Positions 631-42,748 are shown, numbered from the stretch's first letter. The stretch is 42,812 bases of DNA from Candidatus Woesearchaeota archaeon (GCA_018303115.1 JAGVYT010000013.1:1-42812); one strand, 5' to 3'. Made by a program: numbers and translations. The notes: generated by a model not told the origin, from the sequence alone.

Positions 631-1479
631 ATGGAAAATAATGGCAAACTAATCAGCGTCACAGATTTGTCTTCTTACAGCTTTTGCAGGCGAGGCCTTT
701 ATTTAAGGCTGGTTTTGGGCTTGAAAGAGCCTGTCAAGCCTGTAATGGTGCTTGGGGGGATAAGGCACCGGGTATATGACGAGGCTAACAAAAAGGAGGA
801 GTTTCTTGTAAGTCAGATTGGCAGCGATGTGAAACGTGAGGAAGTCCTGCAGATGTTCGCAAATGCCTATAATGCAGTCCTGAATAAAAGCGTCTACAGC
901 TATTCTCCGCAGATTGAAGCGCTGAAAATGGATAAGAATGAGGTGGCAGAGCAATTAAAGCAGATTGTCTTAGTGCAGTCCCGGTCAAGGGCAGACGAGG
1001 TATTAAGCTTTTCCTCAAAAACAGGGCTGTTTGGAAAGGAGTTGTGGAGCAAGCTTACTCCAAAGGTGATAACAGAGCTTGGTGTTCGCTCTCAAAAACT
1101 GCGCCTTAAGGGGGTTGTTGACAGGGTTGAAGTTTATGGCGACGAGTATGTTCCTGTTGAGATAAAGACCGGCCGCGCTCCTCATGAAGGCGTTTGGCCT
1201 GACCACAGGATGCAGCTTGCCGCTTATATGCTGCTTCTGAATGACAGTCTTAATGTCAATATCAAAGAGGGGGTAGTAAAGTATGTCGCTGCAAATCAAA
1301 CCAGGCAAGTGGTTATGAATCCGTTCATGGAGTATGAGGTAACGTCAGCGGTTGATAATGTTTTCAGCTTAATGGAACAGAGGCAGGTTCCGGGTTTCTG
1401 CGGCAAAGGCTACTGCAGCATTTGCGCCCTTGGCGAGGATTATGGGAAGCGCCTGATAAAGCTGCCTGCCCGCTCATAG
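631..1479 (+). CDS. cas4: solo Cas4-family PD-(D/E)XK nuclease with Fe-S cluster ligands
   Basis: N-terminal Cys (SYSFCRR), GVVD..EIKTG, QLAAY and C-terminal CGKGYCSIC; TATA at ~590-600; no cas1/cas2 or array nearby. Confidence 0.85.
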   Translation: MENNGKLISVTDLSSYSFCRRGLYLRLVLGLKEPVKPVMVLGGIRHRVYDEANKKEEFLVSQIGSDVKREEVLQMFANAYNAVLNKSVYSYSPQIEALKMDKNEVAEQLKQIVLVQSRSRADEVLSFSSKTGLFGKELWSKLTPKVITELGVRSQKLRLKGVVDRVEVYGDEYVPVEIKTGRAPHEGVWPDHRMQLAAYMLLLNDSLNVNIKEGVVKYVAANQTRQVVMNPFMEYEVTSAVDNVFSLMEQRQVPGFCGKGYCSICALGEDYGKRLIKLPARS

Positions 1480-1590
1480 GGTAATGTCAACTTACGCGCG
1501 TTTCGTTTTCTTTTCACTTCATTTCTCTACTCCTTGCAAAGTCAGGGAGGAGAAGAAATGAAGCGGCATGCCACTGAACTTGAGATTATC
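1480..1590. mobile_element. MITE A (111 bp)
   Basis: Imperfect TIR GGTAATGTCAA / TTGAGATTATC; perfect 9-bp flanking duplication CGCTCATAG (1471-1479, 1591-1599); internal hairpin 1517-1563. Confidence 0.8.
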
Positions 1591-1634
1591 CGCTCATAGA
1601 AGGGTTTAAATATAATCAAAAAATTCTTTCTGGA

Positions 1635-2699
1635 ATGGCGTATGACATTGGTTATCTTTTAAATTACCAAATCTGGGGCAATTCCGGGAAGGACTACCTT
1701 ACTGCGTTACTGATGGTGCTTGTGGGGGTGGCTGTTCTAAAGCTTTTCAAGAACATCGTCCTGTTAAGGCTTAAGAAAGTAGCCGCAAGGACAAAGACGG
1801 AATTTGACGACCTCCTTGTCAAGATACTCCGTGACATACAATGGCCTCTGTATTTCCTCATTTCTGTCTACATTGCCCTGCAGACGCTTGCACTGCCTGC
1901 TTTGGTAGTCAAGCTGTTCAATTACGCATTGATTGTAGGGGTTGCTTATTACATCGTCAGAGCAATTCAGGACTTTATAGACTTTGGAGCTGGCAGGATA
2001 GTCCACCGTCGTGAAAAGGCTGAAAAAACTCAGGAAGCGGCCCTGATCAAAACGCTTAGCCGCATAGCAAAAGGTATCTTGTGGGCTGTTGCTGTGCTTA
2101 TGGTTCTGTCAAACTTTGGCTATAATGTCTCCACGCTTGTGGCTGGTTTTGGAATCGGGGGAATAGCGGTTGCGTTTGCGCTGCAGAACATCCTGGGAGA
2201 CGTATTCAGCTCTGTTTCCATATACCTTGACAAGCCTTTTGAGATAGGCGACTTCATTATAATTGGCGACCAGATGGGGGTGGTAAAGAAAATCGGGATA
2301 AAATCCACGAGGATAGAGGCGTTGCAGGGAGAGGAAATTGTTGTCTCTAACCGAGAGCTTACCAGCACAAGGATTCAGAACTTCAAGAAAATGGAGAAGA
2401 GACGGGTTGTTTTTAAGTTTGGTGTTGTTTATGGAACTACTGTTTCAAAGCTTAAGAAGGCGAAGGAAATAGTGGCTGAGATTGTAAAGAAAGCCAAGCT
2501 TGCCGACCTTGACCGGGTTCATTTCAAGGAGTTCGGCGATTTCAGCCTTAACTTTGAGGTTGTTTATTACCTGAATTCCAGCGACTATAATGACTACATG
2601 AATACTCAGGAGGAAATCAATTTTGGGATAAAAGATGGTTTTGAGAAGGAGAAGATAGAGTTTGCCTATCCGACGCAGACCATTTTTGTGAACAGATGA
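1635..2699 (+). CDS. mscS: small-conductance mechanosensitive channel
   Basis: Several TM helices, GIGGIAVAFALQNILGD, KPFEIGDFI, terminal FAYPTQT. Confidence 0.95.
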   Translation: MAYDIGYLLNYQIWGNSGKDYLTALLMVLVGVAVLKLFKNIVLLRLKKVAARTKTEFDDLLVKILRDIQWPLYFLISVYIALQTLALPALVVKLFNYALIVGVAYYIVRAIQDFIDFGAGRIVHRREKAEKTQEAALIKTLSRIAKGILWAVAVLMVLSNFGYNVSTLVAGFGIGGIAVAFALQNILGDVFSSVSIYLDKPFEIGDFIIIGDQMGVVKKIGIKSTRIEALQGEEIVVSNRELTSTRIQNFKKMEKRRVVFKFGVVYGTTVSKLKKAKEIVAEIVKKAKLADLDRVHFKEFGDFSLNFEVVYYLNSSDYNDYMNTQEEINFGIKDGFEKEKIEFAYPTQTIFVNR

Positions 2700-2703
2700 A
2701 AGC

Positions 2704-3276
2704 ATGATGATAGCTGACTTCTTGGTGCCGTTCGTAACCATTGCAGTTGCAGAGCTTGGCGACAAGACGCAAATTGCAATGATGGCGTTTGCTGCAAGGC
2801 ACAGGCACACTCTGCAGATATTTCTCGGTGCAATGGCTGCTTCTTTGATTGTTGACGGCTCTGCGGTGCTGCTTGGAGCTTACGTTTTTGTTTATCTTCC
2901 TAAAGTTCTGCTGTCTGCAGTGGCTGGCAGCATTTTCATTCTCTTCGGGATTTACACGCTCTTAAAAAGGGAGAAAGAGAAAGGCGGCGGGGCAGCTACA
3001 AAAAAATCCGTGCTTGCCATGGCTTTCCTGCTGTTTTTCACAAGCGAATTCGGGGATAAGTCTCAACTTGCAGCCCTTCTTTTCGGAACCCAGTATAACA
3101 TGCTCCTTACGCTGCTTGGCACTCTTGGCGGTATAGCGGCTGTTCTGGTTGCTATGCTCCTTGCTGGCAAATACATTAGAGAGCACTTCAGGGAGAAGCG
3201 TGTGCGGCTCTTTTCTTCATTGCTGTTCTTGGCCGTAGGCGCATGGCTGCTCATTGGCGCTGCTGTCAAAGGATAA
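2704..3276 (+). CDS. GDT1/TMEM165 (UPF0016) Mn2+/Ca2+ transporter
   Basis: Two E-x-G-D-K-[TS]-Q motifs (ELGDKTQ, EFGDKSQ); ~6 TM helices. Confidence 0.92.
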   Translation: MMIADFLVPFVTIAVAELGDKTQIAMMAFAARHRHTLQIFLGAMAASLIVDGSAVLLGAYVFVYLPKVLLSAVAGSIFILFGIYTLLKREKEKGGGAATKKSVLAMAFLLFFTSEFGDKSQLAALLFGTQYNMLLTLLGTLGGIAAVLVAMLLAGKYIREHFREKRVRLFSSLLFLAVGAWLLIGAAVKG

Positions 3277-3309
3277 ACTTATTAAACTTTGTTTTCTGTA
3301 AAGGGCTGC

Positions 3310-4788
3310 ATGGAAATTAACAGGGTAAAGGAATCAGGAATCTTCGTCATTTTCGGGGTTACAGGAGACTTGGCAAAGCGCAAGTTAATACCTGCGCTAT
3401 ACAGGCTCAAGTCCAAAAGGTTGCTGCCTGAAAATTATTTTGTAGTAGGTGTTGGGCGGCGCGTTCTTACGGAAAGCGGTTTTGACAGGATGCTTGAGGA
3501 ATCAAGGAATAGCTTTATAGGACGTGTTAACAGAAGGGCTTGGTCTGAATTCAAAAAGCAAGTCAGCTATTACTCTATTAATTTTAAAAGTGTTAAGTCT
3601 TTCAGGAAACTGGCAAACTACATGGAAAGAACCGGCAGGGAAAGCAAATGCGGCGGCAACAGGGTTTTCTATCTGGCTATGCCCCCCGACGTGTTTGGAC
3701 CGGTAGCCAGGAATATGAAAAAAGCAGGATTGCTGAAAGGAAAGGGCTGGAAAAGGGTTGTGTTCGAGAAGCCTTTCGGGTTTGACCTGGAATCTGCCAG
3801 AGGGGTTAACAGGCAGGTGTCGTCTGTTTTTAGTGAGAGGCAGGTTTACCGCATAGACCATTATCTCGCCAAGGAGTTTGTGCAGAACATACTTTTTTTC
3901 AGGTTCGCAAACCCGATGTTTGAGCAGATATGGAATAATAATTTCATTGACAACGTGCAGATAACCATAGCAGAGCAGGATGGAATTGGCTCGAGGGGCA
4001 GGTATTACGAGAAAGCAGGCGCTGTTCGCGACATGGTTCAGAACCATGCCTTGCAGATACTGTCTTTTGTAGCAATGGAAGCCCCGAAGTCTGCAAAGTC
4101 TGCCGATACCTGTCCTGAAAAGGTGAGGGTTTTGAAGTCAATAAGGAAAGTTCTCCCAAGCGAGGTTGTTACAGGCCAGTATGGAAGCGGTAAAGTTAAT
4201 GGGAAGAACGTTGTTGCCTATAGAAAAGAGTCTGGCGTTGCCCCAGGCTCACTGACAGAGACATACGCTGCTATCAGGTTTTATGTTGACAATCCTCGGT
4301 GGGAGGGAGTTCCCTTTTATGTAAGGACGGGAAAGAGGCTTGCTAAGAGCTATGCTGAAGTCAACATTATGATAAAGGATGTTGTTTGCACTGTGTTCTG
4401 TGATGAAAGAATGGAGCACCCGAACATAATCACTGTGAGAATCCAGCCTGACGAGGGAATCTCCATTAAGTTTAATGTCAAATCCCACGAATCTGTATAC
4501 CCAATTAATCCTGTTATCATGGATTTCAGGCATAAGGCGGTTTTTGGGATGAACGCTCCTGAAGCTTATGAGACGCTTATCGCAGGGGTGATGCAGGGCG
4601 ATAAAGCGTTGTTTACAGACTGGGAGGAAACTGAGCAGAGCTGGAAGGTTATTGAGCCTGTGCTCAAGTCAATGGATAAAATGAGGAAGAAATTCCCAAA
4701 TTACAGGGCAGGCAGTTTTGGCCCGGAAGAGGCTGATAAATTGCTTGAGGGTAAAAAATGGGTGATGCCGCAGGGGGTGGGCGAATGA
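3310..4788 (+). CDS. zwf: glucose-6-phosphate dehydrogenase (bacterial/eukaryotic type)
   Basis: [43 protein letters not shown]; ATG at 3310 preferred. Confidence 0.97.
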
Positions 4789-5678
4789 AACTTGGCTTTA
4801 TCGGATTGGGCAGGATGGGGCATAATGTCGTTCTAAACCTGCTGTCAAAAAAACACGAAGTAGTTGCGTATAATCGTTCTGCTGACAAGGTTAGGAAGAT
4901 AGTGAAAAAGGGTGCGATAGGCGCATACTCGGCTGGAGAGCTTGCACGGAAACTGGCAAGGCCAAGGACGATTATAATCATGATTTCTGCGGGAAAGCCT
5001 GTTGACGCTGTTATTAGGCAGTTGCTGCCTCTGCTTTCAAAAGGTGATACGTTAGTTGAGGCAGGCAACTCTTGGTTTGAGGACTCAATCAGGCGCTATA
5101 AACTGTGCAAGGGAAAAGGCGTTAATTTCCTTGACATGGGAACTTCCGGAGGCTTGAAAGGCGCAAGATACGGCGCTTCATTAATGATAGGGGGGGACAA
5201 GCAGGCATTCAAGCGCCTTGAAAAGCTTTTCACTGACATGGCAGCAAGGGACGGCTATGCTTACGTGGGCGCTTCAGGAGCAGGGCATTTTGTGAAGATG
5301 GTTCACAACGGCATAGAGTATGCCCTTGAGGAAGCGTATGGAGAAGGGTTTGAAGTGCTGAAAAAATGCCCTTACAAGCTTGATCTCGCGAAAGTTGCGA
5401 GAGTCTGGAGCAGCGGCTCTATAATAAGGTCTTTCCTCAGCGAGCTTGCAGAGCAGGCATTCAGAAAGGACCCTGAACTAAGAAAGTTTAAGGGAGCGAT
5501 AGGCGGTGGCGAGACGGGAGCCTGGGCGTTAAAGGTTGCAAAAAAGGAAATGGTTGAGATGGAAACCCTTGCCCACGCACTAAGGGTAAGAAAGCAGTCG
5601 CTGAAAAAACAAACATTTGCCACAAAGCTTGTGTCTGCCTTAAGGGCTGAATTCGGCGGCCATAAGGAAGCCAAATAA
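4785..5678 (+). CDS. gnd: 6-phosphogluconate dehydrogenase (short type)
   Basis: [26 protein letters not shown]; ATGA overlap with the zwf stop. Confidence 0.96.
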
Positions 5679-6364
5679 TGACGGTAACTACCATTTTTAA
5701 GAAAAGCAATGATGAATTAAGTAAAGCTGCCGTTAATATTTTAGTGGAAGTTGTTAACAAATTACTGCAGCAGCAGAAACAAGTTGTATTGGCTATTCCC
5801 GGAGGAAGAAGTGTTGCGGCCATCTGGAAATTGCTTGCTTCCGACCACAGAATACCTTGGAGAAAAATTCAGGTTTTAATGGCTGATGAGAGGGTTGTTC
5901 CGATAACAAGTGGGCAAAGCAATTACCGCTTAGCTTATGATACTTTTCTGAAGAAATTAATTGAAGCAGGAGAGCTGCCTGAGGAAAACCTGCATCCGTT
6001 TATTGCTGATAAAGGCAGCAGCAACTACAATAAAGAATTAAAAAAATACGGAGGAAAGCCGGACATGATAATCCTTAGCATCGGCGAGGACGGGCACGTA
6101 GGCGCGCTATATCCCAACCATCATTCTGTAAAAGACAGTTCAGAAGGTTACATAGCAGTGGACGACTCCCCCAAGCCGCCTCTGGAACGCATCACAATGT
6201 CAAGGAAAACAATGCTGAAGGCGAAAACTGCACTGCTGCTCTTCATTGGAGAGGCGAAAAGGGAAGCTTACGAGAAATTCAAGGCAGGTGACGATATTAT
6301 CGAATGCCCTGCAAGGCTTGCAAAGCAGATTAAGGACTCTTATGTGCTGACAGACCTTAAATGA
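5678..6364 (+). CDS. pgl: 6-phosphogluconolactonase
   Basis: PGGRS, DERVVP, IGEDGHVGALYP, PKPP..RIT; TAATG overlap with gnd. Confidence 0.92.
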   Translation: MTVTTIFKKSNDELSKAAVNILVEVVNKLLQQQKQVVLAIPGGRSVAAIWKLLASDHRIPWRKIQVLMADERVVPITSGQSNYRLAYDTFLKKLIEAGELPEENLHPFIADKGSSNYNKELKKYGGKPDMIILSIGEDGHVGALYPNHHSVKDSSEGYIAVDDSPKPPLERITMSRKTMLKAKTALLLFIGEAKREAYEKFKAGDDIIECPARLAKQIKDSYVLTDLK

Positions 6365-7064
6365 AGAGCTGCTGCAGGGAAAGTCTGTCATTAGGCATTG
6401 TTGAAAGTCTTGCCCGCTCTCTTATTCGCCCTTTCCTTTTTTCCTTCTCCCCTTAACTTGTTAGAGGGGGGAAGGAAAATTGGAGGAAGAAGCGACAGCA
6501 GCAAAACAGGCAAATAACGACTTTTTCAACAGAGCCCGGTCATTAAAAAAATACTTAAACTCTGATAAACTCCCGGCAGGAATGACTGGCATAGCCCAAA
6601 TAATCAGTGAACTTGACAGCTTGCCATTAAAATCAGCCGATGAAAGACATGAGGAATACATGCTTACAGGAGATCTCACAAAGCTAAACAATCATAGACT
6701 GACAGCCACCCCAAAAAGGATTATTGAATCTTCTGGAAGTCTCTCTGGTGAGCAATTCTCGGCTTTTTTGCAGCACGCTATTTCGATGTTTCCAAATCCG
6801 CAATTACCGAGTGGAATAACCGGATACGCATTCGATACTTTCTATGGCCGGAGTGTTTTATGCACAGTTGCCGTAGAGGCCTTTTTAAGCCGGGATAACC
6901 GCTCAGAAGCTGACAGGCTGACTCTAAGAAACGCATTGGCCCAGGTTAAGGGATATGAGATGGAAATACTTGTATTCGATAAGTTTGATGAATCCGGGGT
7001 AGCTGATGCAGAAATAACCATTGACAAGTTACTTATGCGTTTGTCAGAATTGCCTGTCCCTTAA
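6361..7064 (+). pseudogene. hypothetical gene apparently interrupted by MITE B (3' part still open, 6546-7064)
   Basis: Removing the MITE and one TSD joins ATG 6361 (ATGA overlap with pgl) in frame to the ORF ending at 7064, giving 183 aa; the listed TTG start at 6480 lies inside the MITE. Confidence 0.55.
6394..6536. mobile_element. MITE B (143 bp), IS903-like ends
   Basis: TIR GGCATTGTTGAAAGTC / GACTTTTTCAACAGAGCC; 9-bp TSD CTGTCATTA / CGGTCATTA; hairpin 6439-6479; left end identical to 24791. Confidence 0.9.
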
Positions 7065-7149
7065 CCTTGATTCCGTTCTAGTATAACTGCGCATTTATTG
7101 TCTGTTTTCCAAAGAATGCCTCGTTATCTCAAGGCTGCAGCTGCCATAC

Positions 7150-7488
7150 TTAAGACGTTACAATAATTCTCTTTTTTCGCAGCTCCTTATCAGCAACATT
7201 CAGGGAAAACTGTTTTAAAAAATCCTCAATTAGGGAAACATCCGGGTTTTTCCTATCCAGCCTGTATAAAACCGCCTTTCCTATTTTTCTCGACACTTTT
7301 ATAATTCCAAAATTCAACATCTGCTTAACATACTTGTAAACGGTTAACTTGCTCATTCCCAACTCTTTAACCAGTTCTTCCCTCGTAAAATCAAAATATG
7401 AATTTTCTAAAAATACGTTCAGGAGCCTTAGCTTTGGGGAGTCGCCAAACAGCTGTAATAATACAGAGCCTTCTTCAGGATATGCCAT
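7150..7488 (-). CDS. winged-helix transcriptional regulator
   Basis: LFGDSPKLRLL..FTREELVKELGMSKLTVYK..RKIGKAVLYRL; ATG at 7488 preferred. Confidence 0.8.
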   Translation of the reverse strand: MAYPEEGSVLLQLFGDSPKLRLLNVFLENSYFDFTREELVKELGMSKLTVYKYVKQMLNFGIIKVSRKIGKAVLYRLDRKNPDVSLIEDFLKQFSLNVADKELRKKRIIVTS

Positions 7489-7549
7489 TTTTACCACATG
7501 CCTTAGCGACATAGCAAAGTTTAAATACTTTACCATATAAAGTATTGTT

Positions 7550-7807
7550 ATGATACTTTCTGATTCAGAAATAAAAAAGGCTATTTTGGAATTTTTGGTA
7601 AAGAAAGCAAGGTGGGGCTCTAATTACTTTCCGTTGCAGACATTGACAAGCTGGTTTGGCAGGAAGTTGGAAAGCAACGGGAAAAGGTCGAAAAAAGCTG
7701 TTAAAGAACTTTTGAAAGAAGAACTGCTGCTCATTCACAAAAGGGGAGAAACTATTTCCTTAAACCCACACAAAAAAGAGGGGGTAATAGGGTTAATTGG
7801 AAAGTGA
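7550..7807 (+). CDS. small basic wHTH-like hypothetical protein
   Basis: 85 aa, divergent from the regulator, shared TTTAAATA at ~7520. Confidence 0.7.
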   Translation: MILSDSEIKKAILEFLVKKARWGSNYFPLQTLTSWFGRKLESNGKRSKKAVKELLKEELLLIHKRGETISLNPHKKEGVIGLIGK

Positions 7808-7821
7808 ACTAAGCTTTGAAC

Positions 7822-7965
7822 TTAAATGCTTCCTTTGTTTTCCAGCGCATGCTTAGTTATCTCCAAACTACAGCTGCTGTGCTTCCTGCAGAAGTCTTCG
7901 CATTCCTTCGCCCATTTTTCCTCCGTGTAGTGGAAGTTGCACACTGAGCATTGGTAGGTTTTCAT
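7822..7965 (-). CDS. 47-aa Cys-rich metal-binding protein (missing from ORF track)
   Basis: MKTYQCSVCNFHYTEEKWAKECEDFCRKHSSCSLEITKHALENKGSI; starts 1 nt after the copA stop. Confidence 0.85.
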   Translation of the reverse strand: MKTYQCSVCNFHYTEEKWAKECEDFCRKHSSCSLEITKHALENKGSI

Positions 7966-7966
7966 T

Positions 7967-10645
7967 TTATAGCTCATTTAATTCCGCCCTGTCCTTCTTT
8001 TTCTTTTTCCATTTGAAGCCTTTTACAGCCCCTAACAGGGAAACATGTGGTGAAGTTTTGCTCGCCTTGAACCTTTTCATCAGCAGCGAGTTTGTAAGCA
8101 CGCTCACAGAGCTGAAAGCCATTGCTATCCCCGCTATTATCGGGTTAAGGAGAAAGCCGGTGAATGGGAACAGTATGCCTGCTGCTATGGGAATCCCGGC
8201 AGAATTGTAGAAGAAAGCCCAGAAGAGGTTTTGCTTTACCTTCCTTAAGGTGTAGCGGCTTAGCTCTATTGCGGTTATGACGTCCCGCAGGTCATTCTTT
8301 ACCAAAACAATATCGCCAGTTTCTATCGCAACGTCAGTTCCTGAGCCGATGGCTATTCCGATGTCTGCCTGCGCAAGGGCAGGGGCATCGTTTATTCCGT
8401 CTCCGACCATTGCCACTTTCAGCCCTTTCTGCTGCAGCTTCTTTATCTCATTTTCCTTCTCCTCTGGAAGCACTTCTGCAAGCGCCTCGTCTATTCCGAG
8501 CTGCTTTGCAATGGCAGCTGCTGTTTTCCTGTTATCGCCTGTCATCATCATTACCTTTTTTCCCATTCTGTGCAGCTGCTCAACAGCTTCTTTGGAATAG
8601 TCGCTAACAGTGTCGGCTACAGCTATGATTCCGGAAGTCTTTTTCCCGGCTGCAACCAGCATTACGGTTTTTCCTTCGCTTTCAAGCTTTTGCAGAGAGC
8701 CCTCAACGTTCTTGGTTTCCACTCCGAACTGCTCCATAAGCTTCCTGTTCCCCACAAGCACCTTTTTACCATTTATGACTGCGCTAACGCCTTTTCCTGT
8801 AATGGAGTTAAAATTTGTAATGCGGGGCAGCTTTAGCTTTTCCTTTTCAGCCGCCTTTACAATAGCGGCGCTTAATGGGTGCTCTGACTTTTTCTCGACA
8901 GCCGCTGCCAGCTTTAGTATTTCATTCCTGCTGCCATTGAATGCTGCCACGTCAGTGACTTCGGGCATTCCCCTTGTAAGTGTCCCTGTCTTGTCGAATA
9001 CTACCGCATCTACTTTTCCTGTTTTTTGCAGCGCCTCTGCGGTCTTGAAAAGTATCCCGTTTTGCGCTCCAAGCCCTGAACCAACCATTATCGCGGTTGG
9101 GGTTGCCAGACCGAGGGCGCATGGACAGGCAATGATTAAAACTGCAATGAATATTGTTAAGGCAAAGACAAATCCGAATCCCATGAAGTACCACACTAAG
9201 AAAGAAACTATTGCGATGACAACCACTGCCGGAACAAAGTAGGAAGAGATTGCATCTGCAAGTTTCTGGATAGGGGCTTTGCTTCCCTGCGCCTCCTCAA
9301 CGAGTTTTATTATCTGGGCAAGAACAGTGTCTTTCCCTACTTTCGTTGCCTTGAACATGAAGCTTCCTGTCTTGTTTATTGTAGCGCCGATTACAGCGCT
9401 GCCTTTTGCTTTCTCTACAGGGATGCTCTCCCCGGTAACCATTGACTCGTCAACAGATGAGTGGCCTTCCGTTACAGTGCCGTCAACAGGTATTTTCTGG
9501 CCAGGCTTGGCTATGACAATGTCTCCAACAATGACTTCGTCAATACCCACTTCAACCTCCTTTCCTTTCCTTAAAACAACTGCCTTTTTTGCCTGCAATC
9601 CGAGAAGCTTCTTTATCGCTTCTGAAGTTCTGCCTTTTGCTATGGCTTCTAAATATCTGCCGAGCAGGATGAACGCTATGAGAAGTCCTGCAATTTCGTA
9701 ATAGAGGTTGCTGTGGCCGTAGCCTGTGCTGCCGCTCCACATAATGATTGAGAGAACGAGGCTGTAAAGGTATGCTGCTCCTGTTCCAACTGCTATGAGC
9801 GTGTCCATGTTTGCAGTTCTGGTGCGGATAACTGAGGAAATTCCTTTGGTGAAGAATTCGTAACCTGCAAGCATTATCGGGGTTGTGAGGAGGAACTGGA
9901 TTAAGGCGATGTTTTCCTCAACAAATACGGGTATTGGCATGCCGAATACTGAACCCATGGCAAAGTAGAGCAGCGGCAGGCCGAAAACTATTGCCGCAGT
10001 CAAACGGAGGCGGAGCGAGCGCAGCTCTTTTTCCCGTGCTTTTTTTTCAACATCAGCGTCCTCGGAATATTCCTCCGGCTCATAACCGGCATTCCTTATT
10101 GCTTGCATTATTTTTTCAATTGTTGTCTGTTTCGGGTCATAAATTACAATGGCTCTTTCGATGGCAAAGCTTGCCTCAACGTTCAGAACTCCAGCTTGCT
10201 TTTTCAGGCTTGACTCAATGATTCCTGCGCAGTGCTGCGAATTCATCCCCCTTACTTTGAGGGTTATTTCAGAACCTTTCCCGCTGCTCTTGATTATGTC
10301 ATAGCCTGCTTTCTTAACAGCCGCCTCAATTGCCTGCTCGCCGGTTTTTGCAGCATCGTATTCAACGGATGCCTTTTCAGAAGCGTAGTTGACATTGGCA
10401 TTCACTACTCCGGGAACTTTTTTCAGTTCCTTCTCTATTCTTACGGCGCATGAAGCGCAGTGCATCCCTTCTATGGGCAGTATTTTTTTGGTCGCGGTTT
10501 TAGTTTCCTTACCGAGAAATTTATCGTGGCAGCTTTTGCTGCAGAAATAATGCTTCTTTCCATTCTTTACAGCAGAAAACTTGGCTGTCTTATCATCAAC
10601 CTCCATTCCGCAGCTCGGGTCTTTTGATTTCATTTTCACTTTCAT
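7967..10645 (-). CDS. copA: Cu(I)-translocating P1B-1 ATPase with YHS/TRASH domain and two HMA domains
   Basis: DPSCGM..FCSKSC, GMHCASC, degenerate GMNSQHC, TGES, CPC, DKTGT, HP, GDGIND, YN and MAFSS. Confidence 0.97.
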
Positions 10646-11533
10646 TTATACTCCGCAACTTCCCCCTCCCTCGGCTTTTGGCAGCAGTCCCTGCTGCCGT
10701 AAAGGCTCGTAAACATTAGCGCTCCAGCCGGAAGAGCTGGAGTATTTGCCGCCCATTATTTCTTCAGCATTGCTGAAATAATCCTTGCCGTTCAGGTTGT
10801 ATAAAGTTGCAGTTAACAGATACTGCTGCGGGAACCAGAGTGTGTTCGCCTGCAGTGCCAGGGTATAGAGTTCTTCCTCACTCATTCCCTGAGATGCTCC
10901 AAGCTCAAGAAGGGCAAGCATCGCTGCCCCGTGATTGCAGTCAGGGAAAGCGCTTGGGTTATTGCAGCACGGCCTGTAGCTGTTTTTTGATACTTTTTCC
11001 ACAAGTGATTGCTGCTGCGGGGTAAGCTTTATCAGCTCAAGCTTATTAAAGTAAGTCATTGCATCCTTCTTGCCAAGCGTCCAGCCGCCTGTTGCTGCAA
11101 GGTTTGCAACGCCCTGGTATTGTGCAGTCTCGTCAAGTATGGGGTTCTTGTTTGCAATGCCCAGCGGCCAAAGGATATTAAGGAGGAAATTTGCGTTTGC
11201 AGGGGTTAAAATAAGCTGCTCGCTGCTATGTTCTGTCAGCAGCTTGAGCTGCTCCACTGTAAGGCCGCCCCTTGCCCCGTAAAGCTGCCTGAATTTCTCA
11301 AAGTCTATTGCGCCGCTTTCAACGAGCTTCGGAATCACGTTTCCAAGCGCTATTTCAGTCTCAAAACCGTCCTCAGGGAAGATTCTGGATTTCAGTCCTG
11401 CAACGTCATCTGAAGCCTGCGCTTCCGAAGGGCTTTTTTCAAGATTTAAAAGAAAAGCTGCGGCAATAATAAAAAAAAGCGCTGCCGCATAATAGGGGCT
11501 TTTTTTAATTAGTGCAAAGGTAGAACGTTTCAT
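10646..11533 (-). CDS. membrane-anchored Cys-motif protein (CcmH-like helical domain)
   Basis: N-terminal TM; RPCCNNPSAFPDCNHG; C-terminal GGGSCGV; abuts copA. Confidence 0.8.
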   Translation of the reverse strand: MKRSTFALIKKSPYYAAALFFIIAAAFLLNLEKSPSEAQASDDVAGLKSRIFPEDGFETEIALGNVIPKLVESGAIDFEKFRQLYGARGGLTVEQLKLLTEHSSEQLILTPANANFLLNILWPLGIANKNPILDETAQYQGVANLAATGGWTLGKKDAMTYFNKLELIKLTPQQQSLVEKVSKNSYRPCCNNPSAFPDCNHGAAMLALLELGASQGMSEEELYTLALQANTLWFPQQYLLTATLYNLNGKDYFSNAEEIMGGKYSSSSGWSANVYEPLRQQGLLPKAEGGGSCGV

Positions 11534-11619
11534 TATTCAAGGCTCAATGCAGCTTCTTTTTAAGTTTTTTTATATGCTGCCAACTCCAAGGCTTGTCAGC
11601 AGCCCGAGCAGAATTTTGC

Positions 11620-11655
11620 CTACTTTCCTCCGTCATCTCCGCAGCATCCCATCAT
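11620..11655 (-). CDS. candidate micropeptide (M)MGCCGDDGGK
   Basis: Strong SD GGGGGTGA directly upstream, CC motif, co-oriented in the cop operon. Confidence 0.4.
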   Translation of the reverse strand: MMGCCGDDGGK

Positions 11656-11672
11656 TCTCACCCCCGCATACT

Positions 11673-12062
11673 TTATAGGGAATTGTCAATGATTTCCTTA
11701 ACATCTTTCTCAGCTTCAAATGATTCTTCTTTGCCGACTTCCGGAAAGAATTGCGACATAATAGCAGGTTTCATCCCTGCAATCTTTACTTTCCCTTTCT
11801 CCTCAATGACATTTATTTTGCATGGCATGCACAGGGATGTTAACCTGTTCTTGTTCAGGAAATGGTTTGCATGCCTGCCCGAACAAATTTCTATTATCTT
11901 CAACGGCTTTTGTTCAAATCCTTTTGCAGCCAGCCTTTCCTTAACGTCATAAATCTGGAATATAGACCAGCCTTTTTGTTCAGCTGCTTTCAAAACAGAC
12001 ACGACTGCGTTATCAAAACTTTTATCAGTTTCAACAATGTATGCAAAATCTTCTACTTTCAT
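11673..12062 (-). CDS. DUF302 domain protein
   Basis: ETDKSFD..GW..IIEICS..MPCKINV pattern; typical of copper gene neighbourhoods. Confidence 0.88.
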   Translation of the reverse strand: MKVEDFAYIVETDKSFDNAVVSVLKAAEQKGWSIFQIYDVKERLAAKGFEQKPLKIIEICSGRHANHFLNKNRLTSLCMPCKINVIEEKGKVKIAGMKPAIMSQFFPEVGKEESFEAEKDVKEIIDNSL

Positions 12063-12066
12063 GTTT

Positions 12067-12600
12067 TTACCTTTTCTTTTTAGACAAGCCCCTCCACATT
12101 TTTATTGCCCATAGGTAAACCAGTATTATCAACCCAACCAGCAGCATTACATAAAGGACATTTACAAAATTCCCGTATCCGTAACCGTATCCCCAGCTTC
12201 CCATCACGCCCTGCATCATGTTATTCATCCCCCCACTGCCTTTTATTGAGGAAGCGCCCATCATTCCGCCATTCCTTCCCATCATCATGTTCATCATTCC
12301 AGAGGACATTGCTGTTCTATCGCCGCAATAAAATGACTGTGCCATTCTCATGTGCATAAGCCTTAAAGTCTCAGAGCCTTCCCCCCCCATTAGCTCATCC
12401 ATTGCCTCATGCTCCTCTCCGGGGTGCATCTGCTCCATGTAATACTCGCCGATAAGTTCGAGCTGCTGCTCTGTAAGCTCGCTGCAGGGGGCCTTGCCTG
12501 CTATGATTTCCTCCGCTTTTTCAAAATCCCCATCAGAATGGGCTATTGCGGCAGCCGCCATCAGCAACAGCGCCAGTGCAACAGCCAATATTTTCATCAT
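12067..12600 (-). CDS. exported Met/His-rich membrane-anchored protein
   Basis: Signal peptide, MEQMHPGEEHEAMDELMGG, Met-Gly-rich tract, C-terminal TM. Confidence 0.8.
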   Translation of the reverse strand: MMKILAVALALLLMAAAAIAHSDGDFEKAEEIIAGKAPCSELTEQQLELIGEYYMEQMHPGEEHEAMDELMGGEGSETLRLMHMRMAQSFYCGDRTAMSSGMMNMMMGRNGGMMGASSIKGSGGMNNMMQGVMGSWGYGYGYGNFVNVLYVMLLVGLIILVYLWAIKMWRGLSKKKR

Positions 12601-12622
12601 GTTTCCTCATTACGTATCCGTT

Positions 12623-12636
12623 TATGATATATCGTA
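12623..12636. promoter_or_regulatory. candidate PadR operator in divergent promoter
   Basis: Near-palindrome TATGATATATCGTA next to TTTAAAT at ~12650. Confidence 0.45.
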
Positions 12637-12677
12637 TTATGCAAAACTATTTAAATGTTTCTGTATTTCCAGCCGTC

Positions 12678-13094
12678 ATGGAGGAAATAAAGGTCACTAA
12701 TCTTGTAAAGTTTTATACGCTGCTTCTTCTGAAAAGAAGGCCCATGCACGGCTACGAGCTGATTAAGGAGCTTGAAAGATGCATGACAAAAAACATAAGC
12801 GCCAGCCACGTCTACCCTTTCCTCAAGACGCTGCAAAAAAACATGCTGATAGCCCTTAAGGAATCGGGCAAGAGGAAAAAAAAGCAGTATAAACTGACTA
12901 AAGAAGGTGAAAAGCTTGCGCATAAGCTAATTAATAGGTTTACAGAGATGGTGGAGATAAGCATAAACCCAAGGATAAGGGCATGCGCTCACTGCGGCTG
13001 CAAGATAGCTTCAGGAGGCCATAGGGAAAGAATTAAAAACGTGCTGCTTACCTTCTGTTGCAGCAGGTGTGCAGCTTCGTATAGGAAAAAATGA
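12678..13094 (+). CDS. PadR-family regulator with C-terminal TRASH-like metal sensor
   Basis: PMHGYELIK..VYPFL..KKQYKLTKEG; CAHC...FCCSRC; ATG at 12678. Confidence 0.88.
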   Translation: MEEIKVTNLVKFYTLLLLKRRPMHGYELIKELERCMTKNISASHVYPFLKTLQKNMLIALKESGKRKKKQYKLTKEGEKLAHKLINRFTEMVEISINPRIRACAHCGCKIASGGHRERIKNVLLTFCCSRCAASYRKK

Positions 13095-13576
13095 AAAAGC
13101 AACAGCAGATAGGATACGGGCTAATAGGGCTTTCAATAGTGCTGCTTGTTGTTTTATCATTTGTAAAGGCAGATGTCGACAGACAGGGCGCTTTCCTGTG
13201 CGAAGCGGCAAGGGACAACCCGTCAGTTGACATGGGAGAATGCCCTGCGCACAAGAGCAGCACGTCCTGGTTTATAGTGGCTGCTTTCGGATTAGCTTTT
13301 CTTGTATTGGGTGCAGGCATCTACACGCTTTTTACTTCAAAAGAAATTGAAGCTAAAAAGGAATTTAAGGAAATAGATGAGTCAAAGCTCGGCGAGGAGG
13401 AAAAGAGGGTTTACGGGCTGCTTAAAAGCGGTAATGGCGCGAGCTACCAGACAGACCTTATAAAAGAGACCGGCTACAGCAAGGTCAAAATAACGCGAGT
13501 CCTTGACAAGATGGAGTCCAAGGATATTGTTGAGAGGAAAAGACGGGGCATGACAAACATAATAGTTCTTAAGTGA
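13091..13576 (+). CDS. membrane-anchored winged-helix regulator
   Basis: Two TM helices flanking a C..CPAH loop; C-terminal YQTDL..SKVKITRVLDKME..RKRRGMTN. Confidence 0.85.
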   Translation: MKKQQQIGYGLIGLSIVLLVVLSFVKADVDRQGAFLCEAARDNPSVDMGECPAHKSSTSWFIVAAFGLAFLVLGAGIYTLFTSKEIEAKKEFKEIDESKLGEEEKRVYGLLKSGNGASYQTDLIKETGYSKVKITRVLDKMESKDIVERKRRGMTNIIVLK

Positions 13577-13588
13577 AACTAGTTTCAC
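13573..13588. promoter_or_regulatory. perfect 16-bp palindrome, candidate operator
   Basis: GTGAAACTAGTTTCAC upstream of an AT-rich box and the GGAGGT SD of 13652. Confidence 0.55.
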
Positions 13589-13651
13589 CGTTACTTAATA
13601 AAGGGGTTTCAGGTTTTCTACCAGTAATTAAGCGTTTTGGAGGTAATAATT

Positions 13652-14281
13652 ATGAAAATTGAAAGACTAAGCATGTTGCTGCTGGTTGCGGCTTTGGCGG
13701 TTGTTTTGTTCAATTCCTTCCAGATAAGCCAGATGAAAGGAAGCAGCAGCATAACTGGTGCTGCGGTAATAAAAGTGAGTGAACAGGACGTTATACCGAA
13801 AGGGGTTCCAAAAATATACGGGAGCGAGCTGGGCGTAAGTTTTGATGACATTAGTTCTTTGAACCAGCAGCTTGCTGATGCCACTATAAACAAGCTTGGC
13901 GCCCTTGACCGCTCTATAGAGCTTCGGGGCGGGCAACTGCAGCGCTACATAGCAATTGCCTCAAAGATATCGTGCGAATACTGCTGTGGCGCCGCATCTA
14001 TAATATTCAGCAACGGGCAGGCAGCCTGCGGCTGCGCTCACAGCTATGCAATGAGGGGGGTTGCCAAATACCTTATTGAAAACCATGGTGATGAATACAG
14101 CGATGATGAAGTGCTTGAGGAGCTTGGGAAGTGGAAAACCCTGTTCTTTCCCTCCCAGTTGAGCCAGAAGGCAGAGGTGCTTTCCGAGAACGGGATTGAG
14201 CTGAATTACATCAATCTTGCCTCAAACAAATACCGCGGCATAGAACAGGGTGCAGGCGGCGGAATGGTTGGAGGTTGCTAA
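13652..14281 (+). CDS. exported CcmH-like Cys protein ending GMVGGC
   Basis: SD GGAGGT, N-terminal TM, CEYCC..CGCAH. Confidence 0.82.
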   Translation: MKIERLSMLLLVAALAVVLFNSFQISQMKGSSSITGAAVIKVSEQDVIPKGVPKIYGSELGVSFDDISSLNQQLADATINKLGALDRSIELRGGQLQRYIAIASKISCEYCCGAASIIFSNGQAACGCAHSYAMRGVAKYLIENHGDEYSDDEVLEELGKWKTLFFPSQLSQKAEVLSENGIELNYINLASNKYRGIEQGAGGGMVGGC

Positions 14282-14282
14282 A

Positions 14283-14558
14283 ATGGAGAAAGAATCAGGG
14301 ATAAAAATAAGCGGGAAGGGGCTGGCCAGCTACGCGATGCTGATAGTTGCGGTGTTGCTGCTTGTTGTTTCTGTTGTGCAGGCATACCAGATTGCAAGTA
14401 TCGGGAAAGCTGAAAACACTGACGCGAGCAGTGTGCTTGATACTGCTGGCTGGACAGAAGATGAGAAAATGAATTACGAAATGCACGGGATAATACCGGC
14501 GCGTGTTAAGAGCAGCTCGTCCAGCGCATCATCAGCAGGTATGGTCGGAGGCTGCTGA
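14283..14558 (+). CDS. small membrane-anchored protein ending GMVGGC
   Basis: ATG 1 nt after the previous stop; TM; EMHG; Ser linker. Confidence 0.8.
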   Translation: MEKESGIKISGKGLASYAMLIVAVLLLVVSVVQAYQIASIGKAENTDASSVLDTAGWTEDEKMNYEMHGIIPARVKSSSSSASSAGMVGGC

Positions 14559-14559
14559 T

Positions 14560-15036: not shown

Positions 15037-15045
15037 GCGGGTCGA

Positions 15046-15582: not shown

Positions 15583-15583
15583 G

Positions 15584-16084: not shown

Positions 16085-16093
16085 GGTTGATTT

Positions 16094-16663: not shown

Positions 16664-16673
16664 GGAAGCAAAA

Positions 16674-17096: not shown

Positions 17097-17151
17097 TCAG
17101 TAATTAAAACATAAATTATTTAACAGGTAACTTTTGCCATAACAGGCATTA

Positions 17152-18255: not shown

Positions 18256-18258
18256 TTT

Positions 18259-19682: not shown

Positions 19683-19686
19683 TTCC

Positions 19687-25013: not shown

Positions 25014-25016
25014 AGT

Positions 25017-26068: not shown

Positions 26069-26122
26069 TGTCAGAAATCCTGGAGATTTCTGAGCATGCT
26101 CAGAACGCTTTGCGTTCTGACA
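26069..26122. repeat. REP-like double hairpin, copy 2
   Basis: TCAGAAATC-CTGGA-GATTTCTGA GCATGC TCAGAACGC-TTT-GCGTTCTGA between divergent promoters. Confidence 0.8.
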
Positions 26123-26183
26123 TTTCATATATGAAACTTTAGGCAAAGTATTAAATATGGAAAGGACAGGAATAGCGTAGTAA

Positions 26184-28126: not shown

Positions 28127-29038
28127 ATGAGAACGGATTTCCAGACAGTGGTATTGGTTCTTGTAATGCTGGGGGGCATTTACAGCCTTGACTATGCTTA
28201 CAGTTACAGCGAGGATGCTGTTTTTGGAAAGCACATTACAGGAGCGCAGATAGCAACAATAGAGCAGTGCAGGATAGAAGGGGGAAAGGCAATCTGCATA
28301 GAAGACGGCCGGAGAACAGAATACAGCAGCAGGATAACATGCAGAGAAAAATGCGGAAAAGAAGTTGGAAAGGGGATTATAATTGAAGAGTCTGCTGAGC
28401 TGCCAGCTGAACAGCCTGGAGAGGCTGCGGGGCGTGCTGATTTGGTGGCTATGGTGGATGTTGAAAGCCCGTTGGCAGTTAATGAGACGTATGTGGTGAA
28501 CGTGTTTGTAAAAAACATCGGGAAAGCAAACACAAAAGACAGCGCGGTTGAAGGCAACGCTTACGGCGATTTTACTGCAAAGCTGGACATATTCAAAAAG
28601 GAAGGGGAGGAGCTGGATAGTGTTATAGACACCATGCTTTTCTCCTGGGAAAACGTCAATGACAGGGCAATGGGCATTGCTGCAAATACTGAAAGAACAC
28701 GCCCAATCATAATACAAAGCTGGAAGCCAGAGGAAACTGGAGTATATTTAATAAAAGTTGAGCTTGATGTTTACGGGCAGATTATTGAAGGGGATGAGGG
28801 CAACGTTTTTGGAGAGGAACGGAGTGTATTGCAGAAGCCTGTGCCCTGCAGCCCGGTTGGATTCCGCAACAGCGGCTTTTACTGTAATGGGAAGCGAAGA
28901 AGCGTCAGGCAAAAAGAAGTTGGAAGCTGTAGGAATGGTTACGAGTGCCTGAGCAATGTCTGCAGCTCTGGGAAGTGCGTGAGCGAGCCTGCGTTTAGAA
29001 GCGCGCTTTGCGATTTGGGAGCCATTACGAATTGTTAG
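28127..29038 (+). CDS. shorter paralog with one CARDB-like domain
   Basis: Near-identical N-terminus to 26184; ADL..VKNIG..EGDEGN; same C-terminal Cys module. Confidence 0.85.
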   Translation: MRTDFQTVVLVLVMLGGIYSLDYAYSYSEDAVFGKHITGAQIATIEQCRIEGGKAICIEDGRRTEYSSRITCREKCGKEVGKGIIIEESAELPAEQPGEAAGRADLVAMVDVESPLAVNETYVVNVFVKNIGKANTKDSAVEGNAYGDFTAKLDIFKKEGEELDSVIDTMLFSWENVNDRAMGIAANTERTRPIIIQSWKPEETGVYLIKVELDVYGQIIEGDEGNVFGEERSVLQKPVPCSPVGFRNSGFYCNGKRRSVRQKEVGSCRNGYECLSNVCSSGKCVSEPAFRSALCDLGAITNC

Positions 29039-32660: not shown

Positions 32661-32705
32661 GGTTTTAGAAGTCGTAAGTGCTTATTTAAATGTTTGTCAC
32701 AGCTG

Positions 32706-32771
32706 CGCTCTGTCCCGAATCCTGTTTCTTGCCTTTGTTACAGGTCAAGCCACGACTCTTAGGACAGATTC
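32706..32771. mobile_element. MITE D (66 bp, decayed)
   Basis: Ends CGCTCTGTCCCGAATCCTGTT / CTCTTAGGACAGATTC match element E; 7/9 TSD TCACAGCTG / TCGCAGTTG. Confidence 0.7.
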
Positions 32772-32794
32772 TCGCAGTTGCTGCTGCAGGTAAG

Positions 32795-40833: not shown

Positions 40834-40983
40834 TATTAGCACGCTAATCAAGCCCAGTATAAAACTTTTATCTATATGTGGTCAACTTCCCAATAATCAA
40901 GTTGAGTTCAGCATCAACAACAGATGTAATCCCGAAAAGTTCCGCTATTTACCCAACTTGATATAACAACTTGGCTTTACACA

Positions 40984-42513
40984 CTAATGCAGCCCTGCAA
41001 ATTCTGTCTTGTATTCAGTCTTTGGCTGTTTCTCAAGCAAATCCTCATACAATGGAACTTTAACAGGAACAGCAAACTTAGAGAATGTGCTTGTTACTAT
41101 TGCCTCGCCTATGTCCAGGGAGGCTATTGCGCGGTCGTCCTGACTTAAGTCCTGTGAAGCTGATTCTATGACTGCTTTTCTCTCAGGGGCCGTTTCAAGT
41201 CCTAAAATTATTTTTGTGCTGATGTTTGCAAGTACCTGCCTTGGCATTAGAGAGGGAAGCTGGGTTATCGCAGTTAAACCAAGCCTGAATTTGCGGCCTT
41301 CTCTTGCGATTCTGGAAAAAATGTTCGGGCCCTGCTCAAGCGCATCCTTCCCAAGAACGCTGGGCGCTTCCTCCAGAACAACAGAGAGAACAGGCTTGTC
41401 TTTGAGCTCGCCTGTCGTTTTGTAGTTCTGGTATCTGTTAAAAAGTTCGGAAGCGACTATGCTTCCCACCAGTATTTCAACCTGGCTGCTTAAGCTGGAA
41501 GTGTCTATTATGACTGCCTTTGATTTTTCCATGTCATCTGCAATGTCGGAAACAGTTGAAATCCCTGATTGGATGTCAAAAATGCCTTTTGAGTAAATCT
41601 CACTGCCAGATATTTCCAGATTAAGAAGCTGCAGCAGCCTTCTTTTGACGACAAGTATGGTTGCCTCATGGAAAAACCCTTCCAGAATTTCATCTTCTTC
41701 AAGAAGAATTGCCGTTATCCATTTAGAGCCGTATTTGCGGTAGTAGGCGTACAGCGCTTCCTTCTGCGGCTCAGACCAGAATACAACACCGTTGAAGTGG
41801 GCAGGTTGTATCTTGCTTATGTTGATTGCGAGGGTTCTTGCTCCGGTAGGGGGAGTGTTTGGGGTGTAGTAAACAACCTTGTCTGAGCAGTCTTTTAGCC
41901 CTGCCTTGTTTCTTCCATAGTATTCATCATGCGGGTCAAGAATAAGAAAACCTGCATATTCCCCTTGTAAAGCGCTGTGGATAATGCATGACATTAAATT
42001 GGATTTCCCTCTCCCTGTTTGCGCAGCTATAAGAACGTGGTGCGAGAACATATCCTCGCCGTTAAGATAGACTTCTGCATCAGCCGCCTTGCTTCCTGTG
42101 CGGAGGTTTCCGATAAACAGGGGGTTTTCAGGCTTTTCAAGAAAGTCATTGCAGGAAGCGTCTAGTTCTTCAACGCTTGAAAAGAAATCCGGCAGGGTTT
42201 TGCACACCCTTAAAGTGCCGTGTTTTAGCAGAAGCAATGGCTTCAGAAACGCCAGAGTGTAGTTGCGAAGTTCTGCGTCCATCAGTTCCAGGTCGTTATC
42301 GCTTTCAAGCTTCATTCCGGAAATCATCTCAAGGTTTTGCTGCGAGAGCTGGGAGCCGTAAACAAGGTCAAACACCTGAAGCAGAACCTTGCCCTGGCTG
42401 GTCTGGGCAGTCAGCAGCTGGCCTATTTCGAGTTTGGCATCGGATTTCTGCCTTACAACAATGCTGTCGAAAGATCCGGAAATGACCTGCCCTGTTGTCT
42501 TCGCCACATACAA
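40984..42513 (-). CDS. herA: HerA bipolar helicase/ATPase
   Basis: HAS-barrel N-terminus, [34 protein letters not shown]. Confidence 0.93.
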
Positions 42514-42553
42514 ATGGTTTTCCGGTTGGTATTTATTGTTTTTGCAACTGCTG

Positions 42554-42711
42554 GGCGTTGCCCCGAATCCTGTTCGTGTAGCTATTGCATGCCCTCAAAC
42601 CTGTTCTCCAAAACTTCTATGACCACTCTATGGCTCACATACGGCAGAGCAGGAGGGAGGAAGTAAAGAGGAAGCGATAAACATTCGAGAAAGCTCTTTT
42701 AGGACAACGCC
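42554..42711. mobile_element. MITE E (158 bp)
   Basis: TIR GGCGTTGCCCCGAA / TTAGGACAACGCC; 8/9 TSD CAACTGCTG / GAACTGCTG. Confidence 0.85.
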
Positions 42712-42748
42712 GAACTGCTGCTAAAATTTATAAACTCGCCGTAACAGC

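Follow-up and report, generated by a model that had tools for sequence, protein, structure and literature searches.

MITEs (miniature inverted-repeat transposable elements) moved by transposases of the IS5/IS903 type are well known, the richness of DPANN archaea in MITEs has already been flagged, and the bare finding of such elements in a further genome is ordinary. The elements considered here are five short repeats, A to E, that lie along 42,812 nt of DNA from a Candidatus Woesearchaeota archaeon (GCA_018303115.1, JAGVYT010000013.1:1-42812); this whole stretch is called the window, and positions are counted from its first letter. The closest described counterpart is the pair formed by MITEAba12 and the insertion sequence (IS) ISAba12 in Acinetobacter, the latter presumably a member of the IS903 group. 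The available part of its description gives 113 bp for the MITE and 1,039 bp for the IS, with 9-bp duplications and ends that start with GGCTTTGTTG (PMC6382973). The likeness lies in a short MITE (element B here has 143 bp), in the 9-bp duplications and in the match of only the ~16-nt ends to a resident IS of ~1 kb, and trans mobilisation is deduced from the same kind of evidence in both cases. The ends begin with GGCTTTGTTG there and with GGCTCTGTTG / GGCATTGTTG here. In the present case the host is archaeal and its genome has 1 Mb, its ISs measure 894-902 bp as against 1,039 bp, and several end types coexist in it. A fixed spacing to TATA-like boxes and the stacking of elements on a shared 9-mer, both seen here, are not described in that part of the Acinetobacter account (PMC6382973).

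Among archaea, where MITEs have been on record from the Sulfolobus SM families onward, SM1-SM4 of Sulfolobus and other MITEs reach tens of copies per genome and are presumed, in the portion of the source at hand, to be moved by resident ISs (PMC10969869). They belong to other phyla and other partner ISs, they are likened to the present elements by description, and promoter phasing is not described in that portion (PMC10969869). An automatic census of prokaryotic MITEs, in its excerpted form, lists DPANN, including 'a Woesearchaea genome', with 105 MITEs per Mb among the densest archaea, and a density such as that found here has therefore, broadly speaking, been recorded before; the excerpt describes no partner IS, 9-bp duplication, promoter phasing or stacking (PMC11602168). 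DPANN receives no more than a brief mention in the accessible part of a survey of ISs in archaea from 2026 (PMC13343696). At the level of titles and abstracts, the literature searched gave nothing apparently relevant on promoter-phased insertion of archaeal ISs or MITEs, or on ISs of Woesearchaeota.

We put at about 85% the probability that the elements described here are non-coding MITEs moved in trans (B likely by a resident IS, IS-1), which leave 9-bp duplications, insert on the promoter side of genes and stack on one another. A first-pass annotation, made from the window sequence, had proposed a single dense family of IS903-like MITEs of several ages in a compact archaeal genome. The host agrees with the last part of that proposal. 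The window is the entire contig C25 of genome G000, which comprises 993,512 bp on 45 contigs with a completeness of 95.99% and a contamination of 0.02%, and a Pfam scan of 41 window open reading frames (ORFs) finds the archaeal housekeeping genes for RFC small subunit, RNase P p30, HerA, an Mre11-type phosphoesterase and GatB. The coding fraction, taken from a crude ORF-based gene map, is ~0.88.

Element families, target duplications and empty sites

When the five elements are compared with the genome by BLASTN and their flanks are tabulated, three end types emerge, A, B and E, whose terminal inverted repeats are conserved among copies (copy tables and end-motif scan), whose interiors are unrelated between the types and whose copies lie in flanks that have diverged or are unrelated. 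The A-type end, GGTAAAGTCAAC..., occurs in A and, reversed, in the right half of C; the type is ~110 nt long (GGTAAAGTCAAC...GTTGACATTAC), with seven near-full genome copies that are 87-90% identical to the window copy and with subfamilies A2 and A3 of 120-131 nt. B-type ends, GGCATTGTTGAAAGTC / GGCTCTGTTGAAAAAGTC, are found in B and in the left half of C. The B type has 143 nt (GGCATTGTTGAAAGTC...GACTTTTTCAACAGAGCC); its B1 copies on contigs C36, C43, C24 and C11 are 92-99% identical to the window copy, and its B2 subfamily shares ~77% identity with B1. The E type has 158 nt with GGCGTTGTCCTAAA at both ends and occurs in E and, decayed, in D; its copies are 86-96% identical to the window copy, and many carry extra small inserts. 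The genome holds 22 matches to B and 29 to E, figures that count matches rather than copies. The three end types of the first-pass annotation are thus upheld by the copy tables and the motif scan, as are, by BLASTN and flank tables, the non-autonomous nature of the elements, their inverted ends, their 9-bp duplications and their multiple copies. Several ages are likewise apparent from the identity ranges of B1, A and E and from the decay of D. The idea of one element family does not hold, with at least three end types of unrelated interior and additional subfamilies. In a self-BLAST of the genome, 39,736 nt (4.0%) have at least one other copy and 22,802 nt (2.3%) at least two; repeats of the latter kind form 171 blocks of at least 30 nt with a sum of 22,725 nt.

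Re-reading the window bears out the coordinates first given for all five elements, as well as the flank matches first given for each of them (A 9/9, B 8/9, C 9/9, D 7/9, E 8/9). MITE A (1480-1590, + strand, 111 nt) has the ends GGTAATGTCAAC... / ...GAGATTATC and an internal hairpin. It is flanked by CGCTCATAG at 1471-1479 and again, 9/9, at 1591-1599; the left copy holds the TAG stop of the upstream Cas4-like ORF (631-1479). Five nucleotides past the right copy there is a TATA-like TTTAAATA (1605-1612, + strand), the putative promoter element of the MscS-like gene downstream (1635-2699). MITE B (6394-6536, + strand, 143 nt), of subfamily B1, has the ends GGCATTGTTGAAAGTC and GACTTTTTCAACAGAGCC with a strong internal hairpin, and lies between CTGTCATTA (6385-6393) and CGGTCATTA (6537-6545, 8/9). 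At E (42554-42711, + strand, 158 nt; ends GGCGTTGCCCCGAA... / ...TTTTAGGACAACGCC), the duplication reads CAACTGCTG on the left (42545-42553) and GAACTGCTG on the right (42712-42720, 8/9), and a TATA-like TTTATAAA (42727-42734, + strand) stands 6 nt beyond it, a probable promoter element for the ORF starting near 42750.

The other two elements are altered. Composite C is enclosed by AGTTTAGAT at 24782-24790 and, 9/9, at 25014-25022. Its left part (24791-24912, + strand) is a B2 element without its last ~20 nt, hence without the right inverted repeat, and is 97% identical to C44:2235-2357; its right part (24913-25013, - strand) is an A-type (A2-like) MITE in reverse, with the outer end GGCAAAGTAAACTATCGCG intact and the inner tip lost. 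D (32706-32771, + strand) is a 66-nt, internally deleted relic of the E type that retains ...CTGTCCCGAATCCTGTT on its left and ...CTCTTAGGACAG on its right, between TCACAGCTG (32697-32705) and TCGCAGTTG (32772-32780, 7/9); its repeat family, D18, shows 79% identity to the left end of E. Judged by sequence, D is a decayed E, and C is a B2 element fused to an inverted A2-like element. With lengths of 66-223 nt the window elements are too short for a transposase gene, and all five are intergenic according to the ORF map and the Pfam scan.

The duplications were examined in 32 two-ended copies (6 A, 4 A2/A3, 9 B and 13 E), excluding those that are truncated on one side or interrupted where a contig stops; 992 pairs that combined one copy's left flank with a different copy's right flank served as control. 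Flanks match at 7/9 or more in strict register in 18/32 copies, as against 1/992 mismatched pairs, and in 23/32 as against 11/992 when a slide of one base is allowed. The duplications are beyond chance, and with 18 of 32 genome copies carrying them they are not limited to the window. One E copy without a duplication (C22:5200-5041) has ACACAATTA on one side, and the same ACACAATTA recurs beside an E fragment 5 kb off in the opposite orientation (C22:10624-10655), a pattern suggestive of an inversion brought about by E copies recombining with one another.

The window is syntenic with three genomes of the same genus at 64-81% nucleotide identity, and empty sites exact to the nucleotide are present in one of them, G001, for A and for E. 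At the A site G001 has ...GCATATTAG directly joined to AAGAATTTAAATAC, where the window has ...CGCTCATAG, then A, then CGCTCATAG followed by AAGGGTTTAAATAT. At the E site it has ...CTACAACTGCTAAAATTTATTAAAT, where the window has ...GCAACTGCTG, then E, then GAACTGCTGCTAAAATTTATAAAC. The spacer that holds C is ~238 nt shorter in G003 and the one that holds D is ~106 nt shorter in G001. At the B site the downstream neighbour genes differ in G001 and G002, and G003 is without the genes between A's neighbours. In G002 (its contig C7, 11900-13500) a different palindromic element, GCTAAGCTGCCCTGATTTTCCC...GGGCAGCTTAGC, occupies the site orthologous to that of MITE B. Searches for B and for E in 40 relatives each (3 congeneric genomes, 21 related at the level of family and 16 at that of order) found neither element, save for one 36-nt hairpin match.

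Candidate partner insertion sequences

No transposase family is matched at E <= 1e-5 among the 41 window ORFs scanned. The first-pass annotation had reported elements without a transposase, which is right for the window (0/41 ORFs) but not for the genome, where a profile search with PF01609 finds four places: IS-1, IS-2, a gene on contig C22 and a remnant on C19. PF13737 (DDE_Tnp_1_5) has zero matches in the genome. IS-1 (C1:1-894) is an intact IS with the ends GGCATAGTTGAAAATC and GGCTCTGTTGAAAATC and a single frame of 270 codons, read from position 810 to position 1. Contigs overlap by 99 nt, so that C2 at its end continues into the beginning of C1, which yields CCCCCTTTC as the duplication of IS-1. 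Its ends are close to those of MITE B (GGCATTGTTGAAAGTC / GGCTCTGTTGAAAAAGTC) and have the same left/right asymmetry (GGCAT... vs GGCTCT...). IS-2 (C27:20316-21217, 902 bp) has the ends GGCTCTGTAGAAAGTC and GGCTTAGTAGAAAAAGTC, continues into C37 and is flanked on both sides by GATAGATAG. In neither IS does the transposase frame contain a stop codon; the frames cross the terminal repeat, and the C-terminus of the protein is therefore set by the insertion site. The 270-aa transposase of IS-1 scores 150.4 bits on NF033579 (transpos_IS5_2; cut-off 140) and 70.4 bits on PF01609. From the shared ends and asymmetry we infer that IS-1 moves B. An autonomous element with matching ends is present in the genome for B (IS-1, IS-2) and absent from this assembly for A and E.

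The third gene (C22:23230-24414) has a frame of 395 aa with a SWIM zinc finger and DDE_Tnp_1, and scores 128 bits on NF033579, under the cut-off. As a partner of A or E it was rejected, having no convincing inverted repeats and no A or E end nearby. The broken remnant at C19:3075-3269 is followed by no recognisable end.

The IS of plasmid pSC101, which we take to be IS102, an IS903 relative, served as the yardstick for the IS903 end. In its record (NC_002056, 6916-7972, 1,057 bp) the 18-nt ends read GGCTTTGTTGAATAAATC, which confirms the IS903 inverted repeat given in the first-pass annotation, and the right end of B agrees with them at 15/18. The transposase of the pSC101 IS scores 352 bits on NF033579, its best NCBIfam model, as for IS-1. 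In BLASTP the two proteins share 23% identity over 242 aa (E = 6e-11), with both D, the E and the Y-2-R-3-E-6-K spacing in register (AVDGTG, GDKAYD, YNRRSIVESVFSALK). The Y-2-R-3-E-6-K arrangement is a signature motif, and a 9-bp target duplication defines the IS903 group. IS-1 and IS903/IS102 thus have in common the best model, the DDE residues with Y-R-E-K spacing, the GGC start and the 9-bp duplication, and differ in the low protein identity, in length (894 bp vs 1,057 bp), in the domain of life of the host and in the IS-1 transposase frame, which has no stop codon inside the IS. Family (IS5), duplication length (9 bp), initial GGC and end sequence of IS-1 all appear to fit the IS903 group.

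Among species-representative genomes, relatives of the IS-1 transposase (32-95% identity) come nearly all from metagenome-assembled genomes (MAGs) that bear the label Candidatus Woesearchaeota or Nanoarchaeia. Both ends are present in six related ISs, which are 883-921 bp long and start with GGC or GGT, and four of the six carry a 9-nt flank repeat (L038 and L043 9/9, L044 7/9, and L041 at least 9 nt, with an IS end that is ambiguous by one base). Plasmid matches to the IS-1 transposase found by tblastn, among those listed, are all below 60% identity and come mostly from haloarchaeal and alphaproteobacterial 'IS5 family' genes.

The E end was searched with up to two mismatches in 151 genomes (G000 and 150 of the same order). 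In G029 an E-like end, GGCTCTGTCCTAAAAG, occurs at several contig ends and bounds an 897-bp multi-copy IS, the transposase of which is 50% identical to that of IS-1. As this end bounds an IS with an IS-1-related transposase, a sister IS within the IS-1 clade very probably mobilises E. A-type ends number 46 in G065, which belongs to a different family of the order; there they lie on an unrelated 193-nt MITE with 8-9-nt duplications; at the G065 loci (L084-L089) the A-type end is conserved and the MITE interior is not. The IS-1 transposase query gave no match in G078, G096 or G116. Mobilisation in trans by small IS903-like transposases of the IS5 family is accordingly best suggested for B, by matching ends and duplications, would extend to E through the G029 element, and is left open for A. 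The IS903-group link of the first-pass annotation shares this gradation: it stands for B by the IS-1 ends and the protein model, reaches E only through an IS of another genome and is not borne out for A.

Spacing to TATA-like boxes and stacking

The position of the elements relative to TATA-like boxes was compared with that of 9-mers drawn at random from ORF-free DNA. Past the duplication, the first TATA-like hexamer stands at 4-8 nt on 25/64 element sides, as against 720/20,000 control sides. Its distances have a narrow distribution (two sides at 4 nt, three at 5, nine at 6, six at 7, five at 8, one at 9, two at 10, one at 12 and one at 28), and the control is flat. Counted per element, 24/32 have a hexamer at 3-10 nt, compared with 560/5,000 controls. 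IS-1 and IS-2 show the same TATA-like spacing.

The elements are also stacked. Wherever element ends face each other within 60 nt, in five of five independent pairs, they are exactly 9 nt apart. The pairs are A with E, B with an A-like element, E with B1, an E fragment with B2, and IS-2 with E; in 4/5 of them the element beside the TATA-like box is of the B type or is IS-2, and the one that it adjoins is older. The exact re-use of one 9-mer argues for target choice. Where B stands next to E (C24:30225-30546 and C22:10505-10799), the repeat past B measures 11 nt and includes the CC that ends E; the two cases are independent and differ both in the 9-mer and in the B subfamily. The middle AAGTTTAGC of C was considered as a third copy of the duplication and set aside. 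It is more likely A-type subterminal sequence, and C is therefore not counted among the stacked pairs.

In archaea the B recognition element (BRE), just upstream of TATA, is purine/A-rich. The published target motif of IS903 is WTTYA-N9-TRAAW, as given in the part of the paper used (PMC2577343, Table 1), and R-A-A at +2 to +4 is found at 10/33 half-sites, as against 1285/20,000 controls, with a fit at +1 and +5 that is not clear. The target flanks here may in part resemble the motif, which would be a further likeness to IS903/IS102, and the BRE could serve as an IS903-type TRAAW half-site. A tentative proposal, for which we would give slightly less than even odds, is that the small IS903-like transposases of DPANN-type archaea, and their MITEs, choose a promoter target, namely a 9-mer that ends ~6 nt before TATA, next to the BRE, through a BRE that mimics TRAAW or through DNA bent by TBP/TFB. 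Insertions would then take the promoter-proximal copy of the duplication, stacks would have their youngest member nearest the promoter, and the core promoter would stay intact while its upstream context is rewritten.

Proposed mechanism, alternatives and meaning

According to the explanation preferred here, the terminal inverted repeats would be the only functional parts of the MITEs. A DDE transposase supplied from elsewhere would bind these repeats, excise or copy the element and join it to a target with a 9-nt stagger, the repair of which would produce the 9-bp duplication. The enzyme for the B type would likely come from the 894-bp IS-1 (IS5 family, IS903-like), and the 902-bp IS-2, which like IS-1 has nearly identical ends and a 9-bp duplication, may serve too; that for the E type would come from a presumed sister IS of the same clade, outside this assembly. 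Insertion would occur just upstream of archaeal promoters, with the duplication ending ~6 nt before the TATA-like box, and new insertions would re-use the 9-mer beside a resident element and so give rise to stacks.

Several observations weigh against this explanation. The evidence for mobility is sequence comparison, and transposition was not seen directly. In strict register 14 of the 32 two-ended copies fall below 7/9 in their flanks, 9/32 do so even with a one-base slide, and two of the six related ISs (L042 and L045) are without a flank repeat. The identity between IS-1 and MITE B is limited to ~16 terminal nucleotides and does not establish descent of B from IS-1, and the IS-2 transposase, with 112.5 bits on NF033579, stays under the cut-off of 140. 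The end-motif scan found no IS with E-type or A-type ends in this assembly, the A-type end is strongly different from the IS903-like end (~7/16), and the IS-1 query found no IS-1-like transposase in G065 with its 46 A-type ends. For the phasing, the set of TATA hexamers and the 4-8-nt window were picked after the flanks had been seen and the control map is crude and ORF-based; because of this post hoc choice the related ISs of other genomes, with a spacing of 4-8 nt on 6/18 sides, are the fairer test. Public sequencing data count in favour of the explanation, with limits. Logan contigs of four public runs, each from another study, were placed on window positions 1-20000; in three of the four runs a contig joins 6393 to 6545 and skips B, and in the fourth a contig reaches 28 nt into B. 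As the short side of this joint is only 25 nt and 151 nt are skipped instead of 152, it is a good hint of a segregating empty allele of B, not proof, and its two sides may have further letters between them. No joint at A is among those listed, a listing that leaves out 38 others and so carries no weight for A.

Of the other ways to account for these data, one leaves mobility in place and concerns the cause of the pattern. Insertions might land anywhere and be tolerated only between an upstream stop codon and a promoter, so that survival would be the sole source of the TATA distance and the stacking. The crude coding fraction of 0.88, the intergenic position of all five window elements and the tiny free spacer at A, where the upstream gene's stop lies within the duplication, are in keeping with it. 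Selection, however, does not require the re-use of the same 9-mer in 5/5 facing pairs, given that over 100 nt of neutral sequence in a resident MITE could be hit instead, and distances of 0-3 or 13-27 nt do not occur although the control is flat. Autonomous ISs in other genomes have the same spacing, and the R-A-A enrichment fits the IS903 motif as given in the source excerpt (PMC2577343). Survival as the only cause therefore seems doubtful, if still a serious candidate, and we infer that target choice, and not survival alone, lies behind the phasing. Both patterns, phasing and stacking, are real; their cause, target choice or survival, is not settled.

The remaining two alternatives bear on what moves the elements and on whether they move at all. 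A-type and possibly E-type elements could depend on a transposase from another family, one that likewise leaves 9-bp duplications, and would then merely share the genome with an IS903-like system. The A end GGTAAAGTCAAC is unlike the B and IS ends, no partner IS is found in this assembly, G065 is rich in A-type ends on its unrelated 193-nt MITE with no IS-1-like transposase found, and the genome does hold another DDE transposase, the SWIM-finger gene of C22. Yet no A-type or E-type end lies near that gene, G029 holds an IS of the IS-1 clade with an E-like end, and A resembles B and E in its 9-bp duplication, in its phasing to TATA and in its stacking, so that mobilisation by a separate family appears unlikely. 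Far less probable is that the repeats are small structured RNA genes or repetitive extragenic palindromic (REP)-type regulatory palindromes, not mobile at all. Every element is intergenic, and A and B fold better than shuffled sequences (z = -2.3 and -4.6), but E folds no better than its shuffles (z = +0.96) and no copies were found in the 40 relatives. We rejected the RNA-gene reading for the 9-nt direct repeats at the element borders, the precisely empty orthologous sites in G001, the presence of a matching IS in the genome and the lack of any Rfam family at gathering score in the window.

Other repeats are present in the window. A sixth family, missed by the first-pass annotation, lies at 40879-40971 between the Rad50-like and HerA-like genes and has five other genome copies (on C11, C16, C34, which has two, and C24), with a conserved core of ~75 nt and apparent short inverted ends ATCAAGTTGRG. 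Short double-hairpin repeats (TCAGAA...TTCTGA) at 497-584 and 26069-26123 have many genome copies and, unlike the MITEs, also match the same-genus genomes G002 and G003; the motif is nested in some A and E copies (C13, C7, C35). A direct repeat of 219 nt, 90% identical, occupies 26208-26426 and 28151-28369 at the 5' ends of adjacent ORFs (26184-28070, with CARDB domains, and 28127-29038). In the Logan contigs of all four runs, numerous alternative joints near 18699-18853 skip 66-147 nt inside a thioredoxin/DsbA-like gene, and the joints at 18700-18850 probably mark a region of that gene with repeats that vary across strains or related organisms. ARAGORN finds no tRNA in the window.

What goes beyond the known is, in part, the very small autonomous partner of 0.9 kb, which has relatives in MAGs labelled Woesearchaeota and offers a testable pair of transposase and end in a lineage without genetic tools. 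The sharp spacing between insertion and TATA-like box and the stacking on one shared 9-mer are the other two parts. Should target choice underlie the spacing, it would provide an example of promoter-guided integration in prokaryotes, and the order of insertion could be read from the order of elements in a stack. The repeats make up 2-4% of a 1-Mb genome that is ~88% coding and they lie before genes, where they could matter for regulation and rearrangements.

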